Shown piece by piece: positions 7,442 through 40,721 of a DNA stretch of 64,000 bases. Position numbers and translations under genes: made by a program. Every line of letters begins with the position of its first letter. Position 1 is the stretch's first letter. The DNA is from an uncultured Sphingomonas sp. Lineage in GTDB: Bacteria; Pseudomonadota; Alphaproteobacteria; Sphingomonadales; Sphingomonadaceae. Location: contig NZ_CAXSHM010000007.1 of the NCBI RefSeq assembly GCF_964237335.1, forward strand, positions 8,923 through 72,922, read 5' to 3'. The notes beneath the pieces were generated by a model. It did not search any database and was not told where the DNA came from. It was given only the letters and a program-made list of their open reading frames with translations.

Positions 7442-9109
7442 GTGATGTCCGAACGCGAGTCGATGCCCTATGATGTGGTGATCGTCGGCGCCGGCCCGGC
7501 AGGGCTGACGGCCGCGATCCGGTTGAAGCAACTGGCGGCGGCCGAACGGGGCGGCGAGCTGTCGGTCTGCGTGCTGGAGAAAGGATCGGAGGTCGGCGCG
7601 CACATCCTGTCGGGCGCGGTGATCGATCCGCGCGCGATGGACGAACTGCTGCCCGACTGGCGCGACACCGATTGTCCGCTGGCCGAGACGCCGGTGACGG
7701 AAAACCTCCATTGGGTGCTGACCAAGGGCAAGAAATACGTCCTGCCGCACCTGTGGACGCCGCCGTTCCTGCACAACGAGGGGACGTATACCTGCTCGCT
7801 CGGCAATCTGTGCCGCTGGCTGGCCGGGCGGGCGGAGGAGTTAGGCGTGGAAATCTTCCCAGGGTTTGCCGCCGCCGAGGTGCTGTTCAACGACGACGGG
7901 TCGGTGAAGGGCGTCGCGACCGGCGACATGGGCGTCGCGCGCGACGGCACGCGCAGGGCCGACGGGCAGGCGGGACTGGAGGGGGACGCGAAATAGACCG
8001 TGCTGGCGGAAGGGGTGCGCGGGCATCTGACCAAGGAGCTGATCCGCACCTTCGACCTCGCGCGCGACGCGCAGCCTCAGGTGTACGGCCTGGGCGTGAA
8101 GGAGCTGTGGGACCTAGCGCCCGAGAAGCACCATCCCGGCCGCGTGATCCACACCCAGGGCTGGCCGCTCAGCGAGACCGATGGGTCGAACGGCGGCGGC
8201 TGGATCTATCATCAGGCCAACGGGCAGGTGTCGATCGGCTTCGTCACCTGGCTGTCCTACACCAATCCGCATCTGTCGCCGTTCAGCGAGATGCAGCGGT
8301 GGAAGACGCACCCGGCGGTGCGCGAGCTCCTGGAAGGCGGCAAGCGCGTGTCCTACGGCGCGCGGGCGATCAACGACGGCGGGTTGCAGTCGATCCCCAA
8401 GCTGACCTTCCCGGGTGGTGCGCTGATCGGCTGCTCGGCGGGTTTCCTCAACGTGCCGCGCATCAAGGGCACGCACGGCGCGATGAAGTCGGGCATGATG
8501 GCGGCGGAAGCGGCGTTCGACGCGGTCCAGGCCGGGCGCTCGGGCGACGAGCTGTCCGCTTATCCCGCCGCGTTCGAGGCGAGCTGGCTGCACAAGGAGC
8601 TTTCGATCGTCCGAAACGTCGTGCCGATCGTCAAGAAGTTCGGCGACTTCGTCGGCTCGGGCCTGTCGGGCATCACCATGTGGCTCGAGCATTTCGGCCT
8701 CAAGATGCCCTTCACGATGAAGCACCACCCCGATCACGAGAGCCTGTGGCGCAAGGACCTGGTCAAGCCGATCGACTATCCCAAGCCCGACGGCAAGCTG
8801 ACGTTCGATCGCCTGTCGTCGGTGTTCCTGTCCAACACCAACCACGAGGAGGATCAGCCGGTCCACCTGACGCTGCGCGATCCCGCGGTTCCGATCGAGT
8901 ACGACCTTCCGATGTACGACGAGCCGGCGCAGCGATATTGCCCGGCCGGCGTGTACGAGGTGGTGGGGCAGGACACGAATGAGCCGCGCTTCGTCATCAA
9001 TGCGCAGAACTGCGTCCACTGCAAGACGTGCGACATCAAGGACCCGACGCAGAACATCAACTGGGTGGTGCCCGAAGGCGGCGGAGGACCGAACTACCCC
9101 AACATGTAG
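7442..9109 (+). pseudogene. electron transfer flavoprotein-ubiquinone oxidoreductase (ETF-QO) interrupted by an in-frame TAG at 7994-7996
   Basis: ORFs 7442-7996 (FAD-binding GAGPAGL N-terminus) and 8000-9109 (C-terminal 4Fe-4S region CVHCKTCDIKDP) are in the same frame. They read ...GLEGDAK-TAG-TVLAEGVRGHLTK across the conserved AK(Y/V)T(L/I)FAEG segment. Confidence 0.8.
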
Positions 9110-9160: not shown

Positions 9161-9246
9161 CCGTCACCCCGGGCTTGACCCGGGGGCCCGCTTCTTCTTC
9201 GAAACCCGAAGGTAACGGCGGGACACCGGCTCAAGGCGGCGGTGAC
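9161..9246. repeat. MITE/REP-like palindromic element, family D (CCGTCACCCCGGGCTTGACCCGGGG arms)
   Basis: Terminal inverted repeats gtcaccccgggcttgacccggg / ccggctcaaggcggcggtgac. Lies in the ETF-QO/ispE spacer. Confidence 0.7.
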
Positions 9247-9267
9247 TAGGAAAGGGCGATCCGGACG

Positions 9268-10116
9268 ATGCTGGATAACGACGTGATCGTGGAGATCGCC
9301 CCCGCCAAGCTCAACCTGGCGCTCCACGTCCGCCGCCGCCGCGCGGACGGCTACCACGAGCTGGAGACGCTGTTCGCGTTCGCGCGAGACGGCGACGTGG
9401 TGACGGCCGCTCCGGCGGAAACCGATTCGTTCGTGATGACCGGGCCGTTCGCGTCGGCGCTATCGGGCGAGGGCGACAACCTCGTCACCCGCGCCGCCCG
9501 CGCGTTCGTCGATGCGTTCGCGCCCGACACCGCGCATGCTATCGCGCTGGAGAAGATCCTGCCGATCGCATCGGGGATCGGCGGCGGTTCGGCGGATGCG
9601 GCGGCGACGTTGCGCGCGCTCGCACGGCTGCATGGGGTCGAGGCGGGGGACACCGGGCTCGTCGCGGTCGCGCGCGCGCTCGGAGCCGACGTTCCCGCCT
9701 GCCTGCTCGGTCGGACCGCATTGGGCACCGGACGCGGCGACGATCTGATCCCGCTCGAGCCGCTGGGCGGCATGCCCGCGCTGCTCGTCAACCCGCGCGT
9801 CGCGGTCGCTACCGGACCAGTGTTCGCCGGCTGGGACGGCGTGGACCGCGGCGGCGTCGCGAGGGAAGGCGACGTGATGACGCGCGCCCGCGCCGGCCGC
9901 AACGATCTCGCCGCGCCCGCGATCGCGACTGCGCCCGTCATCGCCGACCTGCTCGCGTGGCTGGAGGCGCGGCCGGGCGCCGCGTTCGTCCGCATGTCCG
10001 GGTCGGGCGCCACCTGCCTGGCCTTGTTCGACTCGCCCGCGGACCGCCACTCCGCCGCTGCTGCGCTAAGGACGGAGCACCCCGATTGGTGGGCGCTGGA
10101 GACGGCCCTGGCATGA
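9268..10116 (+). CDS. ispE: 4-(cytidine 5'-diphospho)-2-C-methyl-D-erythritol kinase
   Basis: 282 aa. APAKLNLALHV N-terminus and the GHMP kinase motif PIASGIGGGSADAAA. Confidence 0.9.
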   Translation: MLDNDVIVEIAPAKLNLALHVRRRRADGYHELETLFAFARDGDVVTAAPAETDSFVMTGPFASALSGEGDNLVTRAARAFVDAFAPDTAHAIALEKILPIASGIGGGSADAAATLRALARLHGVEAGDTGLVAVARALGADVPACLLGRTALGTGRGDDLIPLEPLGGMPALLVNPRVAVATGPVFAGWDGVDRGGVAREGDVMTRARAGRNDLAAPAIATAPVIADLLAWLEARPGAAFVRMSGSGATCLALFDSPADRHSAAAALRTEHPDWWALETALA

Positions 10117-10288: not shown

Positions 10289-11380
10289 ATGGCTGCCTCT
10301 CTCAAGGTGATCGACACGGGCATGGCGAACGAGAAGGCGGCCGCGACCGCAAGCACGGACCGGCAGAAGGCGCTCGACGCCGCGCTGGCGCAGATCGACC
10401 GCGCCTTCGGCAAGGGCTCGGCGATGAAGCTGGGCTCCAAGCAGTCGATGGAGGTCGAGACGATCTCGACCGGGTCGCTTGGGCTCGACATCGCGCTCGG
10501 CGTCGGCGGCCTGCCGCGCGGTCGGGTGATCGAGGTGTACGGCCCTGAATCGTCGGGCAAGACGACGCTGGCGCTCCATGTCATCGCCGAGGCGCAGAAG
10601 GGCGGCGGCACCGCCGCGTTCGTCGATGCCGAACATGCGCTCGACCCCGTCTATGCCAAGAAGCTGGGCGTCAACATCGACGAGCTGATCGTGTCGCAGC
10701 CGGACACGGGCGAGCAGGCGCTGGAGATCGTCGACACGCTGGTCCGCTCCAACGCCATCGACGTGCTGGTGATCGACTCCGTCGCCGCGCTTGTCCCGCG
10801 CGCGGAGATCGAGGGCGAGATGGGCGACAGCCACGTCGGCCTGCAGGCGCGGCTGATGAGCCAGTCGCTGCGCAAGCTGACCGGATCGATCAGCCGCTCG
10901 CGCTGCATGGTCATCTTCATCAACCAGCTGCGCATGAAGATCGGCGTGATGTACGGCAATCCGGAGACGACGACCGGCGGCAACGCGCTCAAGTTCTACG
11001 CCAGCGTCCGCCTCGACATCCGCCGCACCGGCCAGATCAAGGACCGCGAGGACATCGTCGGCAACGCGACCCGCGTGAAGGTGGTGAAGAACAAGGTCGC
11101 GCCGCCGTTCAAGCAGGTCGAGTTCGACATCATGTACGGCGAGGGCATCTCCAAGATCGGCGAGATCCTCGATCTCGGCGTCAAGGCGGGGCTGGTCGAG
11201 AAGTCGGGCAGCTGGTTCAGCTACGACAGCGTCCGGATCGGGCAGGGACGCGAGAACGCCAAGACGTTCCTGCGAGAGAACGCCGACATGGCCGACCGGC
11301 TGGAAAAAGCGATCCGCCAGCGGACGGAGAAGGTGAGCGAAGCGCTCATGGTCGGTCCCGACGCCGAGGACGATGTGTGA
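10289..11380 (+). CDS. recA: recombinase RecA
   Basis: 363 aa. [12 protein letters not shown] Walker A and unmistakable full-length RecA similarity. Confidence 0.98.
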
Positions 11381-11526: not shown

Positions 11527-12174
11527 ATGACGATCACCGTCCACCATCTCGAGAACAGCCGGTCGCAGCGCGTGTTGTGGATGCTCGAGGAGCTCGGCCT
11601 GCCCTATGAGGTGAAACGGTACGAGCGGAACAAGGCGACGATGCTCGCGCCGCCGGAGCTGAAGCGCATCCACCCGCTCGGCAAGTCGCCGGTGATCGTG
11701 GACGCCGTCGGCGTCTCTGGCGAGGGGGGCGTCGTGGTGGCCGAGACGGGCGCGATCATCGAGTATCTGGTCGAAAAGGCGGACGGCCGGCTCGGCCCCC
11801 CGGCGCACCGCGACGCGGTGCTGCGCTACCGATACTTCCTCCACTATGCCGAAGGGTCGGTAATGCCCCCGCTGCTCCTGCTGCTGGTGTTGAGCCGGAT
11901 CCCGGTCGTCGGCGGCTTGGCGGCCAAGAAGGTGCAGCCGATGATTGACGTCCACCTCGACTATATCGAGCAGGAACTGGCGCAGCGGCCCTGGTTCGCC
12001 GGCGACGAGTTGACGGGCGCAGACGTCATGATGAGCTTCCCGCTGGAGGCGGCGCGCAGTCGCGGCGGACTGAACGCCACGCGTCCGCACACGATCGCGT
12101 GGCTCGACAAGGTCCACGCCCGGCCCGCGTACCAGCGCGCGCTGGCCGCGGGGGGACCCTACGCCTACGCGTGA
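11527..12174 (+). CDS. glutathione S-transferase
   Basis: 215 aa. N-terminal thioredoxin-like GST fold (SRSQRVLWMLEELGLPYE...HPLGKSPVI) plus a C-terminal helical domain. Confidence 0.85.
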   Translation: MTITVHHLENSRSQRVLWMLEELGLPYEVKRYERNKATMLAPPELKRIHPLGKSPVIVDAVGVSGEGGVVVAETGAIIEYLVEKADGRLGPPAHRDAVLRYRYFLHYAEGSVMPPLLLLLVLSRIPVVGGLAAKKVQPMIDVHLDYIEQELAQRPWFAGDELTGADVMMSFPLEAARSRGGLNATRPHTIAWLDKVHARPAYQRALAAGGPYAYA

Positions 12175-12183
12175 TCCCACTCT

Positions 12184-12277
12184 CCGTCTGGCTGAGCTAT
12201 TGCCGTTGCAGCCAGTCGGAGGAGGCTCGCTTATCGCAGCAAGAAGAGCGGTGCTTCGACAAGCTCAGCACGAACGG
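12184..12277. repeat. MITE/REP-like element, family A (CCGTTCG..GCTGAGCTTGTCGAAG / CTTCGACAAGCTCAGCACGAACGG), degenerate left arm
   Basis: The right arm gtgcttcgacaagctcagcacgaacgg is intact. The left arm ccgtctggctgagctattgccg is decayed. Confidence 0.6.
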
Positions 12278-13736: not shown

Positions 13737-13816
13737 CCGTTCGCCCTGAGCTTGTCGAAGGGCCGTCTTTACAGGCTCGGGAGAAAGCAGTGCTTCGACA
13801 AGCTCAGCACGAACGG
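13737..13816. repeat. MITE/REP-like element, family A
   Basis: ccgttcgccctgagcttgtcgaagg ... gtgcttcgacaagctcagcacgaacgg inverted arms. Confidence 0.8.
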
Positions 13817-23797: not shown

Positions 23798-23880
23798 CCG
23801 TTCGTGCTGAGCTTGTCGAAGCACTGTCTTTTCTTCGTCACCGAAGAAGGGCAGCCCTTCGACAGGCTCAGGGCGGACGG
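23798..23880. repeat. MITE/REP-like element, family A
   Basis: ccgttcgtgctgagcttgtcgaagc ... cccttcgacaggctcagggcggacgg. Lies between rpsB and tsf. Confidence 0.8.
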
Positions 23881-26284: not shown

Positions 26285-26372
26285 CCGTTCACCCTGAGCG
26301 TGTCGAAAGGCTATCGTTCCGTTCTGCGGGAAGAAGGGCAGTGCTTCGACAGGCTCAGCATGGGCGGAACGG
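26285..26372. repeat. MITE/REP-like element, family A
   Basis: ccgttcaccctgagcgtgtcgaaagg ... gtgcttcgacaggctcagcatgggcggaacgg. Lies between frr and uppS. Confidence 0.8.
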
Positions 26373-34446: not shown

Positions 34447-34528
34447 CGTCACCCCAGCGAACGCTGGGGTCTCCTCGTTCCGGGTTCGACCCCAAACGGG
34501 GAGATGCCAGCGTTCGCTGGCATGACGG
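34447..34528. repeat. MITE/REP-like element, family C (CGTCACCCCAGCGAACGCTGGG arms)
   Basis: cgtcaccccagcgaacgctggggtctc ... gagatgccagcgttcgctggcatgacgg. Lies between fabZ and valS. Confidence 0.8.
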
Positions 34529-34573: not shown

Positions 34574-37423
34574 ATGACCGATCTGCCGAAGACCTTCGAT
34601 CCCGCCGCCATAGAGGCGCGCTGGTACGCGCATTGGGAGCGGGAGGGCCTGTTCCATCCCGACCGGCCGGGCGCGGAGCCGTGGACAATCGTCAACCCAC
34701 CCCCCAACGTGACCGGCTCCCTGCACATCGGCCATGCGCTCGACAACACGCTGCAGGACATCCTCGTCCGCCATGCGCGGCTGCAGGGCAAGGACGCGCG
34801 CTGGGTGGTCGGCACCGATCACGCGGGCATCGCCACGCAGATGGTCGTCGAGCGACGCATGGCGCTCCAGCAACAGAAGCGCACCGATTTCACCCGTGAC
34901 GAGTTCGTCGCGAAGGTCTGGGAGTGGAAGGCCGAAAGCGGCGGCGAGATCACCAACCAGCTCCGCCGCCTGGGCTGCTCGATGGACTGGCGGAACGAGC
35001 GGTTCACGATGGACGAGGGCTTCTCCGCCGCCGTCCGCCGCGTGTTCGTGCAGTTGCACCGCGAGGGCCTGCTGTATCGCGACAAGCGGCTGGTGAACTG
35101 GGACCCGGGCCTCGGCACGGCGATCAGCGACCTGGAGGTCGAGACGCGCGAGGAGCAGGGCGGCTTTTGGCACCTGCGCTATCCGCTGGCGGACGGGTCC
35201 GGAGCGATCTCGGTCGCGACGACGCGGCCCGAGACGTTGCTCGCCGACATGGCGGTGGCCGTGCATCCCGACGACGAGCGTTACCGGGCGCTGGTCGGCA
35301 AGCAGGTGCGGCTGCCGATCACCGGACGGTTGGTGCCGATCGTGGCGGACGAGCATGCCGATCCGGCGCTGGGATCGGGGGCGGTGAAGATCACGCCGGG
35401 ACACGATTTCAACGACTTCGAGGTGGGTCTTCGCGCCGGGATCGAGGCGCGCGCGATGCTCAACATGCTCGATGCGCAAGGGGCGGTGACGCAGACGGCG
35501 GACGGGCTGGTGCCGGACGAGCTGATCGGTCTCGACTGGTTCGCGGCGCGCGAGCGGATCGTCGCGCTGCTCGATGCCGACGGCGCGTTGGAGAAGGTGG
35601 AGACCCGCACGATCCAGCGCCCGTACGGCGATCGCTCGGGCGTGGTGATCGAGCCTTGGCTGACCGACCAATGGTACGTCGACGCGAAGACGCTCGCGCA
35701 GCCGGCGATCGAGGCGGTGCGGTCAGGCGCGATCCGCATCGTGCCCAAGACGTGGGAGAAGACGTTCTTCAACTGGATGGAGAACATTCAGCCGTGGTGC
35801 GTGTCGCGGCAACTGTGGTGGGGGCATCGGATACCGGCGTGGTACGCCGAGGATGGCCGCATCATCGTCGCCGAGGACGAGGCAGCGGCGCAGACGGAGG
35901 CGGGCGCAGGCGTGGCGCTTCGACAGGACGAGGATGTGCTCGACACCTGGTTCTCCAGCGCGCTCTGGCCGTTCGCGACGCTGGGATGGCCGGACTCCCA
36001 TGCTCCGTTCGTCTCGAGCGAAGTCGAGAGACAAACCGCGAGCACCGCCTCTGGAGCAGGTGTCTCGACTTCGCTCGACACGAACGGGTTGGGAAAAGCG
36101 AGCAGCGGTTTTGTAAACCGAAGGTCGCAACTCCACGGCCGCTATCCCAACGACATCCTCGTCTCCGGGTTCGACATCCTGTTCTTCTGGGATGCGCGCA
36201 TGATGATGCAGGGGCTCCATTTCTTGGGAGATGTGCCCTTCAAGACCTTGTATCTTCACGGTCTCGTCCGCGCCGCCGACGGCTCGAAGATGTCGAAGTC
36301 CAAGGGCAATACCGTCGATCCGCTCGGGCTGATCGACCGCTACGGCGCCGACGCGCTGCGGTTCTTCATGGCGGCGATGGAAAGCCAGGGCCGCGACATC
36401 AAGATGGATGAGAAGCGGGTCGAGGGATATCGCAACTTCGCGACCAAGCTCTGGAACGCCGCGCGCTTCTGCCAAGGGCACGGCATCGGCGGTTCGGCGT
36501 TCGCGGAGCCGCCGCCGGCCACGCTCGCGGTCAACAAGTGGATCGTTGCCGAATGCGTCGCCGCGATCCAGGCGGTCGACCTGGCGCTCGCCGACCTGCG
36601 CTTCGATGCCGCGGCGGACGCGATCTACCAGTTCATGTGGAGCCGGTTCTGCGACTGGTATCTTGAGCTCATCAAGCCCCTGCTTCAGAGCCATACCTTA
36701 TATTCCGCTCAGGCTGAGCCTGTCGAAGCCCTGTCCTTCTCTGCCGATCAAGAAAGGACAGCCCTTCGACAAGCTCAGGGAGAACGGGAGAAAGAAGAGA
36801 CCAAAGCCGTCGCCGGCTGGGTGCTCGATCAGATGCTGGTGGTGCTCCACCCGTTCATGCCGTTCATCACGGAGGAGCTGTGGCATGCGTTGGCGCCGCG
36901 AGAGCATGACCTGATCGTCGCCGACTGGCCTATGGCGGACGCGCGCGCGATCGATCCGGCGGCGCGGGCCGAGGTCGAGTGGCTGATCCGGCTGGTCAGC
37001 GAGGTGCGGGCCGCACGAACCGGGCTCAACGTGCCGCCGGGGGCCAGGCTGCCGATGCATGTGCGCGATGCTGGACCCGAGACGCAGGCGCGATTGGAGC
37101 GCAACGCGGCCGCACTCGCGCGGCTCGCGCGCGTGGACGTTGTCGAGGGAACGGCGGCCGGCGGAGCCGCGCAGGTGGTGGTGGACGAGGCGACCTTCGT
37201 GCTGCCGCTCGATGGCGTGATCGACCTCGACGCGGAGCGCGCGCGTCTTGCAAAAGGGATCGCCGTTGCCGCGAAGGATCGCGACCAGCTCGCCGCCCGA
37301 CTCGGCAACCCGAGCTTCGCCGAGCGCGCCAAACCCGAGGCGGTCGACAAGGCGCGCGCCGACCATGCCGAGCGGGCGGCGGAGGCGGATCGGCTGACGG
37401 CGGCGCTCGCGCGGCTGGGTTAG
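34574..37423 (+). CDS. valS: valine--tRNA ligase, carrying two in-frame repeat-element insertions
   Basis: 949 aa. [15 protein letters not shown] (HIGH), KMSKSKGN, an editing domain, and a C-terminal coiled coil. See the repeat features at 36005 and 36705. Confidence 0.97.
36005..36087. repeat. MITE/REP-like element (family A termini, variant core) inside the valS coding frame
   Basis: Arms ccgttcgtctcgagcgaagtcgagagac and gtgtctcgacttcgctcgacacgaacgg match at 26 of 28 positions when one is reverse-complemented. Translated in frame as [27 protein letters not shown]. Confidence 0.75.
36705..36787. repeat. MITE/REP-like element, family A, inside the valS coding frame
   Basis: ccgctcaggctgagcctgtcgaagccctgtcc...ggacagcccttcgacaagctcagggagaacgg is highly similar to the intergenic copy at 23798-23880. 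Translated in frame as [28 protein letters not shown]. Confidence 0.8.
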
Positions 37424-40644: not shown

Positions 40645-40721
40645 GCGCCCGTAGCTCAGCTGGATAGAGCATCAGACTACGAATCTGAGGGTCGGACGTT
40701 CGAATCGTTCCGGGCGCACCA
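40645..40721 (+). tRNA. tRNA-Arg (anticodon ACG)
   Basis: Manual cloverleaf: acceptor GCGCCCG/CGGGCGC, D-arm GCTC-AGCTGGATA-GAGC, anticodon arm TCAGA-CTACGAA-TCTGA, T-arm GGACG-TTCGAAT-CGTTC, discriminator A, encoded CCA. Confidence 0.95.

Follow-up and report, generated by a model that had tools for sequence, protein, structure and literature searches.

In-frame REP-like palindromic repeats in the valyl-tRNA synthetase gene of an uncultured Sphingomonas, one of them at a loop that has received several unrelated repeat families

The DNA considered here is a stretch of 64,000 nucleotides (nt) from an uncultured Sphingomonas sp. (positions 8,923 to 72,922 of contig NZ_CAXSHM010000007.1, assembly GCF_964237335.1; hereafter the window), in which the valS gene for valyl-tRNA synthetase (ValRS) carries two in-frame copies of a short palindromic repeat. 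The first of these, referred to below as the site-1 insert, had been picked out in an initial annotation made from the letters alone, which read it as a mobile palindromic element that had landed in an essential synthetase gene, and this core inference is supported by the comparisons reported below. The second valS copy and the recurrent occupation of the site-1 loop were both missing from that account and were found here. As had been claimed, the frame stays open through the insert, and valS encodes an intact protein of 949 amino acids (aa) that follows the class Ia plan, with the HIGH motif at residues 51-54, KMSKS at residues 572-576, a CP1 editing domain, an anticodon-binding domain and a C-terminal coiled coil. 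Thermus thermophilus ValRS (1gax) matches it over its full length (E = 2.5e-205), and the Pfam domains precomputed for ValS P0001 are PF00133, PF08264 and PF10458.

Evidence for insertion comes from orthologues both near and distant, which are without the block. Thermus ValRS aligns to residues 3-475, 520-710 and 750-949 of the window protein, thereby skipping both blocks. Three further sets of proteins were compared: the 120 best database relatives, which are Sphingomonas-type ValRS at 71-86% identity (the homologues), one genome per species for 81 Sphingomonadales species, and 152 diverse ValRS at 38-73% identity. The segment running from LWPF to VSG measures 69 aa in the window versus 28-29 aa in 58 of the 120 homologues, where the loop has 8 residues; in P0005 (79% identity), for instance, the short loop is encoded by TGGCCGGGCAACCACGATCCTAAGCTCTCTGGCCGC. 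The short, or base, state is found in 57 of the 81 Sphingomonadales species, and 7-8 residues separate GWP from RYP in 116 of the 152 diverse proteins, about 7% of which have a long loop of unrelated, non-palindromic sequence at the same place. The bounds of the insert were taken from alignment with an empty-site locus (L082) and with three other loci, L081, L083 and L033. Native valS sequence, CGCAACTCCACGGCC, which is common to valS of other species, restarts at about 36126, and the insert is therefore 36005-36124. The excess length, initially put at about 41 residues (123 nt), is indeed 41 aa relative to Thermus, but amounts to 40 codons or 120 nt relative to the empty-site Sphingomonas orthologues (69 versus 29 aa).

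Both palindromes first noticed in the sequence are present within these bounds: two arms of 28 nt, at 36005-36032 and 36060-36087, are 27 nt apart and pair at 26 of 28 positions (93%), and a small hairpin, CGGTTT-TGT-AAACCG, follows at 36106-36120. No shuffle of the window out of 100 contained a 28-nt arm, and the predicted RNA fold over 35990-36135 reaches -77 kcal/mol (z = -6.96). Each arm is itself a unit with its own stem, GTCTC/GAGAC in one and GTGTC/GACAC in the other, so that the two arm-to-arm mismatches are compensatory within each arm and do not reflect decay. The 83-nt doublet formed by the arms and their spacer has no stop codon in any of the six frames. On its own it would shift the reading frame, and the 37-nt tail that follows is needed because only the sum of the two (83 + 37 = 120 nt) is a multiple of three; the earlier proposal that the element survived by being stop-free and length-compatible thus holds for its first part, whereas length compatibility belongs to doublet and tail together. 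Both the DNA of the tail and its peptide, SxGF[LV]NR, are conserved at three other loci, L081 (~11533-11575), L204 (~11545-11585) and L205 (~10385-10420), with the hairpin CGGTTT-NNN-AAACCG, and the doublets at these loci differ in stem and core subtype. Other readings of these parts were considered. The tail resembles anticodon arms found in L059 and L174, but ARAGORN calls no tRNA and the resemblance is taken as chance; the tail might be part of the mobile unit, but no copy of it adjoins other doublets. ACTCC flanks the site-1 block on both sides, but taking out what lies between its two copies does not give back the native loop, and it was discarded as a target-site duplication.

The units of the site-1 insert belong to a repeat family whose window copies share a common plan: (C)CGTTC, five bases, GAGC-N3-4-TCGA, and five bases complementary to the first five. 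The conserved core of 11-12 nt is GAGCGAAGTCGA in the site-1 copy and GAGCYTGTCGA in a sister subfamily comprising the other window copies. Kinship with intergenic elements had been proposed from the termini CCGTTCG...CGAACGG, and these are indeed shared (13737-13816, 23798-23880, 53560-53677 and others), but the intergenic copies are of the sister subfamily. Beyond the window, a variant-specific 21-base pattern, GTTCGNNTCGAGCGAAGTCGAGA, is present in at least 120 stretches of metagenome DNA, mostly as inverted doublets with the same termini and with spacers of 0-64 nt; several occur per genome, including several on one 4.2-Mb contig, and the 28-nt arms of the site-1 insert are identical to dispersed metagenome copies. 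The arms thus have many copies elsewhere, to which the raised read depth in the source run also points (see below). Neither of the two outcomes named in the initial annotation as refuting it, a homologous segment of equal length in distant taxa or arms without other copies in the genome, was therefore obtained. Adjacent units stand head-to-head in 109 of 114 pairs, with a median spacer of 22 nt.

The secondary structure conserved in this family lies within the unit. Of 109 pattern-matched arms, 99 have bases at the two free stem positions that can pair with their partners (shuffle mean 30, maximum 41), and in an alignment of 60 copies the within-arm helices are 99.2% paired and covary (0.48 versus 0.14, none of 500 shuffles being as high), whereas arm-to-arm pairing shows no covariation (0.040 versus 0.050). 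It is thus the hairpin of the single unit that has been conserved, as in repetitive extragenic palindromes (REPs). Accordingly, the very stable mRNA hairpin that had been expected inside valS can form in the site-1 copy, but what the family conserves is one hairpin per arm. The CGTTC tag is invariant in all 60 aligned copies (alignment A2), and in 42 of 60 metagenomic doublets no stop codon interrupts any of the three forward frames. A covariance model (R1), built from 60 metagenome doublets and no window sequence, recognises 36005-36087 over its whole length (82 bits, E = 8.4e-22, model positions 1-76 of 76) and finds six sister copies in the window, at 12203, 13737, 23798, 26285, 36705 and 53560; of the resulting seven family elements in 64 kb, five are intergenic. 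Outside CGAACGG, a purine-rich consensus G-R-W-W-T-G-G-G extends over ~10 nt and is too weak to set the ends of the element. When Rfam was searched, at gathering as well as at E-value thresholds, the only matches to the repeat were microRNA-like hairpins that stayed below threshold, and a full-text literature search with the core sequences gave only unrelated primer matches. The features of the window that are relevant here are collected in the table.

Table. Coordinates of valS, of the parts of its site-1 insert and of the family copies in the window (ORF, open reading frame; L081, locus of the nearest relative)
Feature	Position	Strand	Evidence or remark
valS, valine--tRNA ligase, 949 aa, intact, bears both insertions	34574..37423	+	ORF and translation
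Site-1 insert, whole: 120 nt, 40 codons, P478-R517	36005..36124	+	Not in empty-site orthologues
Left REP-like unit: CCGTTC, stem GTCTC, core GAGCGAAGTCGA, stem GAGAC	36005..36032	+	Fits model R1; 28/28 in L081
Spacer, 27 nt, fast-evolving	36033..36059	+	14/27 same as L081
Right REP-like unit, inverted: CCGTTC, GTGTC, GAGCGAAGTCGA, GACAC	36060..36087	-	25/28 same as L081
Tail, 37 nt, with small hairpin CGGTTT-TGT-AAACCG (36106-36120)	36088..36124	+	Homologous in L081, L204, L205
Second in-frame doublet (aa 711-738), sister subfamily, cores GAGCCTGTCGA / GAGCTTGTCGA	36705..36787	+	R1 23.8 bits, E = 9e-5
Sister copy, one unit degenerate	12203..12277	.	R1 26.7 bits
Intergenic sister copy, units GCCCT/AGGGC and GTGCT/AGCAC	13737..13816	.	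R1 44 bits
Intergenic sister copy, between ORFs	23798..23880	.	R1 36 bits
Sister copy, degenerate	26285..26367	.	R1 22.4 bits
Intergenic sister copy, longer composite spacer, between ORFs	53560..53677	.	R1 19.7 bits

In the protein, the block had been placed just after the editing domain, which does not hold: the editing domain of Thermus, taken by itself (1wka), corresponds to aa 196-344 of the window ValRS, and the insert starts at aa 478, ~130 residues further on, and ends 55 residues before KMSKS. The host loop runs from the conserved helix WFSS..GWP to the strand RYPND-VLISGFD. A loop before a strand of a Rossmann sheet faces away from the ligand sites, and since inserts are in addition widely tolerated at this one, it is probably surface-exposed. 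By the domain order of the paralogous isoleucyl-tRNA synthetase (IleRS; PMC7191050), the site-1 insert would occupy the first loop that leads from a helix to a strand in the second Rossmann half, after the region equivalent to CP2/CP3.

The assembly at this place could be compared with run X1, the lichen metagenome that is the source run and in which 99% of the sampled window words are present. Logan unitigs of this run, 35700-36085 and 36061-36472, span both site-1 junctions with 0 differences and at the depth of the flanks; the block is soundly assembled, since these independent unitigs cross both junctions unchanged. Read depth in the same run is ~9 over the flanks, 60-100 (6-10x) over the site-1 arms and 150-330 (15-35x) over the second valS copy. 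Joints seen in this run, such as that from 35956 to 36173, were set aside as alignment noise, being matches of at most 30 nt beside short direct repeats. RNA runs contained only 5-7% of the sampled words.

The history of the insert can be followed in the nearest relative, L081 (protein P0002; 86% protein identity), which carries an orthologous site-1 insert including the tail; the site-1 copy thus entered valS before the split from the nearest sampled relative. Between the two, nucleotide identity is 86.8% over the whole gene, 26 of 37 over the tail and 52% over the spacer, the values for the arms being given in the table. Outside the inserts, the ratio of nonsynonymous to synonymous substitution rates (dN/dS) is 0.10 at a dS of 0.48, whereas the 40 inserted codons have a dN/dS of 0.64, with a dN about five times that of the core, which indicates that the gene stayed functional with the insert and that the inserted peptide is barely constrained. 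The protein of L081 (GCA_050954225.1, JBPBPE010000128.1) is labelled as that of a metagenome-assembled genome (MAG) of Janthinobacterium lividum; as this ValS and the MatE transporter and ALAD genes downstream look Sphingomonas-like, an error of binning or labelling is the probable reason.

The second in-frame doublet of valS lies in the anticodon-binding helical domain and is read in a frame that differs from that of site 1. It is cleanly missing from L081, and also from Thermus ValRS, and is the younger of the two copies since the nearest relative is without it. Site 2 is occupied by at least three families, other repeats being found there in P0004, P0010, P0078, P0098 and P0110.

Recurrence is more extensive at site 1, where 59 of the 120 homologues have an insert of at least 8 aa. 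Sorted by peptide motif, these inserts comprise the CCGTTC-tagged family of the window (~31 homologues), a PSPLQGRGLGEG / PSRSREGLGEG type (~21), a HPHPSAASPLPPSP type (5) and a PPRNGEGDQ..PPRAGED type (4). At the DNA level, in representative genomes, the families are different palindromes with no common sequence, and Novosphingobium, Sphingobium, Sphingorhabdus and Allosphingosinicella have them too. A member of the window's family sits at the same valS site in a complete isolate chromosome (L033; NZ_CP197464.1). Three native loop types can be told apart (PxLxGRYPND, EWxRRYPND and LLxKHYPND), and several families are found in each, which in our reading means at least nine independent events; a single-gene neighbour-joining (NJ) tree would need 35 state changes, a figure to be taken with caution as the tree has no support values. 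The left junctions vary, with 2 to 11 residues from GWP to the element. Nested elements (P0020, P0083), two elements in tandem (P0071) and short, deletion-like remnants (P0052, P0105, and NPPRSGED in L073) indicate ongoing gain and decay at this loop. A third variable spot was seen at ValS aa ~426-446 (window ~35850-35910), in a CP3-like region, where 7 of the 120 homologues (P0030, P0042, P0047, P0067, P0071, P0078 and P0085) have 28-58 extra residues of non-palindromic, structured-looking sequence and the window has the short form.

Other genes carry units of the window's family as well. A metagenomic ileS gene (L152 ~9250-9400, contig Ga0207652_10001463) has them in frame (..RVSTLLDTNGKEQGISQSPFASSEVERPG..) at aa ~465-497, which is the relative place of the published CGTC-1 dimer of Erythrobacter litoralis ileS (aa 467-488), so that this may be a second synthetase hot spot. 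Two more genes, at the metagenome loci L148 and L117, have in-frame copies: one is RNase R-like (frame IRSPRAKSRG), and the other, which is cysteine-desulfurase-like, also holds an extra, nested unit. The family is thus read in all three frames in real genes.

The 120 nt at 36005-36124 are best explained, with a probability of about 0.85, as a non-autonomous repeat, namely a REP head-to-head dimer (REPIN-like) from a high-copy Sphingomonadales family, which is carried by valS as a tolerated passenger. Such an element would be mobilised by an enzyme acting in trans, for which the unit hairpin, in single-stranded DNA, would be the recognition signal. To our knowledge, the RAYT or IS200-IS605-type Y1 transposase is the sole established model for mobilisation of this kind, and the lack of a visible target-site duplication fits this class. 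The insert may survive because it is 120 nt long in total, stop-free and placed in a short, tolerant loop; its 40 residues appear to drift almost freely, as would be expected of a near-neutral passenger and not of a functional domain. The hot spot would then be a survival filter, insertions elsewhere in valS being presumably lethal and hence never seen.

Several observations sit uneasily with this account. The tail has no further copy in 2.5 Mb of related DNA, nor beside other doublets; being unique and yet kept across differing doublets, it is not fully explained by a history of one element and one event. No direct repeat that restores the native loop flanks either valS copy, and no target-site duplication is visible in our own reading of the alignments. 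Compared with L081, the arms have changed less than the gene as a whole, which could be due to hairpin constraint or to gene conversion from other copies in the genome, and that four families cluster within so few codons may be owed to targeting as well as to tolerance. Where two units lie 350-1800 nt from each other in 2.47 Mb of DNA, the ORFs between them were read by eye, with no family search and no whole genome included; none was recognised as a Y1 transposase, and they looked TrmFO-like, CarA-like, radical-SAM-like or spurious. Lastly, an AlphaFold2 model from a 41-sequence alignment was poor (mean pLDDT 61, pTM 0.41, the whole catalytic core below 50) and unusable for judging exposure of the loop.

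Some of these points can be accommodated if the patchy distribution arose mainly because each family entered the loop once or a few times long ago, its alleles then spreading between Sphingomonas lineages by homologous recombination and the arms being homogenised by gene conversion. Homology of the tail between the window, L081, L204 and L205, despite their different doublet subtypes and although P0112 is distant on the tree, would be understandable on these terms; the tree is in any case a single-gene NJ tree without support values. We regard this as possible but rather doubtful: four families without sequence similarity preclude a single origin, several of them are found on each of the three native loop types, and their left junctions differ by the residues noted above. 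Targeting is the substance of another proposal, in which the GWP-RYPND loop, with the matching IleRS loop, would be a true hot spot of integration or selection, either because something in the DNA or RNA of the gene guides repeats to it, or because the hairpin or the loop extension is favoured, for example through an inter-domain translational pause. This seems unlikely; if it were so, repeat insertion would be a recurrent, semi-deterministic mode of loop evolution in an essential enzyme, by way of an uncatalogued CGTTC-tagged REP-type family. The chances are slimmer still that the hairpin or the peptide is itself selected for valS function, as a translational pause at the domain boundary, in mRNA stability or processing, or as a useful loop extension, and that inserts are favoured there for this reason. 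The convergence of at least four unrelated palindromic families on a few codons across Sphingomonadales, the conservation of the arms relative to the spacer in L081 and the maintenance of the tail, DNA and peptide alike, at the three other loci could be read in this sense, but the loop is without an insert in about half of the close relatives and in 70% of Sphingomonadales species, the families have no sequence in common, the insert evolves at a dN/dS of 0.64 against 0.10 for the core, and decayed arms (L081) and partial deletions (P0052, P0105, L073) are common. The want of arm-to-arm covariation in the family also counts against such selection, and the few unrelated ValRS with a long, non-palindromic loop fit simple tolerance.

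The two remaining explanations would do away with a mobile element altogether. An ancestral, lineage-specific ValRS insertion domain that merely resembles the intergenic repeats could explain why the block is common to L081 and, at the family level, to ~30 of 120 homologues; it is nonetheless very improbable, given that a model made from unrelated loci matches the block over its full length at 82 bits, that its 28-nt arms are identical to dispersed copies, that close and distant orthologues are without it and that constraint on its peptide is relaxed. An assembly artefact, or a chimeric MAG contig produced by repeat collapse, is barely credible. Logan unitigs do break inside the arms, where depth rises, but those cited above cross both junctions without differences at flank depth, an orthologous insert is present in the independent assembly of L081, and a family member occupies the same site in the isolate chromosome of L033.

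Read as a tolerated REP-like dimer, the site-1 insert can be set beside several known kinds of element. Rickettsia palindromic elements (RPE-1 and its relatives) reportedly lie in frame in essential genes, to which they add 30-50 residues. Their positions are compatible with fold and function, and a gene may hold two copies. The valS insert is likewise an in-frame palindromic insertion in a conserved gene that stays functional (core dN/dS 0.10), but it is carried by a Sphingomonas that is free-living or lichen-associated and whose genome is large and GC-rich, not by a reduced obligate intracellular bacterium, and in Sphingomonadales one loop is hit by several unrelated families across the whole order; no kinship in sequence between the two is expected. 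Bacterial MITEs (miniature inverted-repeat transposable elements), such as Nezha or Correia-type elements, are small, non-autonomous, have inverted ends and can sit in ORFs without breaking them. In contrast to these, the valS copies are without a visible target-site duplication, no parent insertion sequence with matching terminal repeats was seen, and the arms are themselves covarying hairpins. REPINs consist of two inverted REP hairpins with a short spacer that together form the mobile unit, and are almost exclusively extragenic (Bertels and Rainey, 2011; PMC3116915). The CCGTTC family resembles the REPIN-RAYT system in that each unit has its own hairpin, the units form inverted doublets and variant populations exist within a genome (PMC3116915), but its units start with (C)CGTTC and have no GTAG tag, and no RAYT gene flanked by units was seen in the 2.47 Mb read by eye, which include no whole genome.

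The closest comparison is with the intragenic REPs of the GTAG and CGTC superfamilies catalogued by Di Nocera, De Gregorio and Rocco (2013; PMC3733652). In that study, REPs are described in tRNA-synthetase genes of E. litoralis, Sphingopyxis alaskensis and Xanthomonas oryzae (including glyS and the ileS dimer mentioned above), as are different REPs at about one recB site in two Xanthomonas species. A minority of REPs lie in frame inside real genes, where they encode 20-30 or more residues; the CGTC REPs, which are common in α-proteobacteria including sphingomonads, have no known dedicated transposase, and RPE-4 and RPE-6 are equated with them (PMC3733652). Like these REPs, the CCGTTC family consists of short palindromic units in high copy number, mostly intergenic and mainly in head-to-head dimers. 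It differs in its tag (CGTTC versus GTAG or CGTC/TGTC/CCTC), in having a 5-bp covarying stem followed by the 11-12-nt core where CGTC REPs have an 8-9-bp stem starting from A-T pairs and a 4-5-nt loop, and in its tail, since only 26 of 172 units have the 3-nt CCA of CGTC REPs and 19 have CCC (PMC3733652 for the published REPs). By our own reading of the sequence, the 12-nt core would extend the stem only via G.A mismatches and a bulge. The CCGTTC family does not appear in that catalogue, and valS is not among the genes named in the parts of its supplement that were searched. In-frame REP and RPE insertions, including those in tRNA synthetases, are thus already published, and the valS case is a clear further example, of interest mainly for the double insertion in valS, the dated presence/absence pair formed with L081 and the multi-family hot spot. 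CGTC-type REPs are found in the window as well, as head-to-head dimers (CGTCATCCCCGCGAAGGCGGGGA..CCA) at 1748-1838 and 34447-34527 and as single units near 9162 and 51924; the second dimer sits 47 nt upstream of the valS start codon.

The valS case illustrates how selfish palindromic DNA can turn into protein within an essential enzyme, with a dated shared insertion, a younger one, near-neutral drift and decay by deletion. Survival is confined to two loops, which many unrelated repeats have reached independently. There are practical consequences too: such blocks inflate and break up housekeeping-marker alignments, in insert-bearing proteins the Pfam domain PF00133 is divided into two, the repeat arms break assemblies, and the blocks can be mistaken for lineage-specific domains. 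The CGTTC family, with its covarying hairpin, also provides a defined substrate for finding the enzyme that moves REP-like repeats in α-proteobacteria.

Two minor features of the window complete the picture. Two tRNA genes, at 40645-40718 (+) and 54476-54548 (-), are its sole Rfam matches at gathering level. The W-P-F codons of native valS (TGGCCGTTCGCG, 35969-35975), 36 nt upstream of the site-1 insert, contain the terminal heptamer CCGTTCG, probably by chance.

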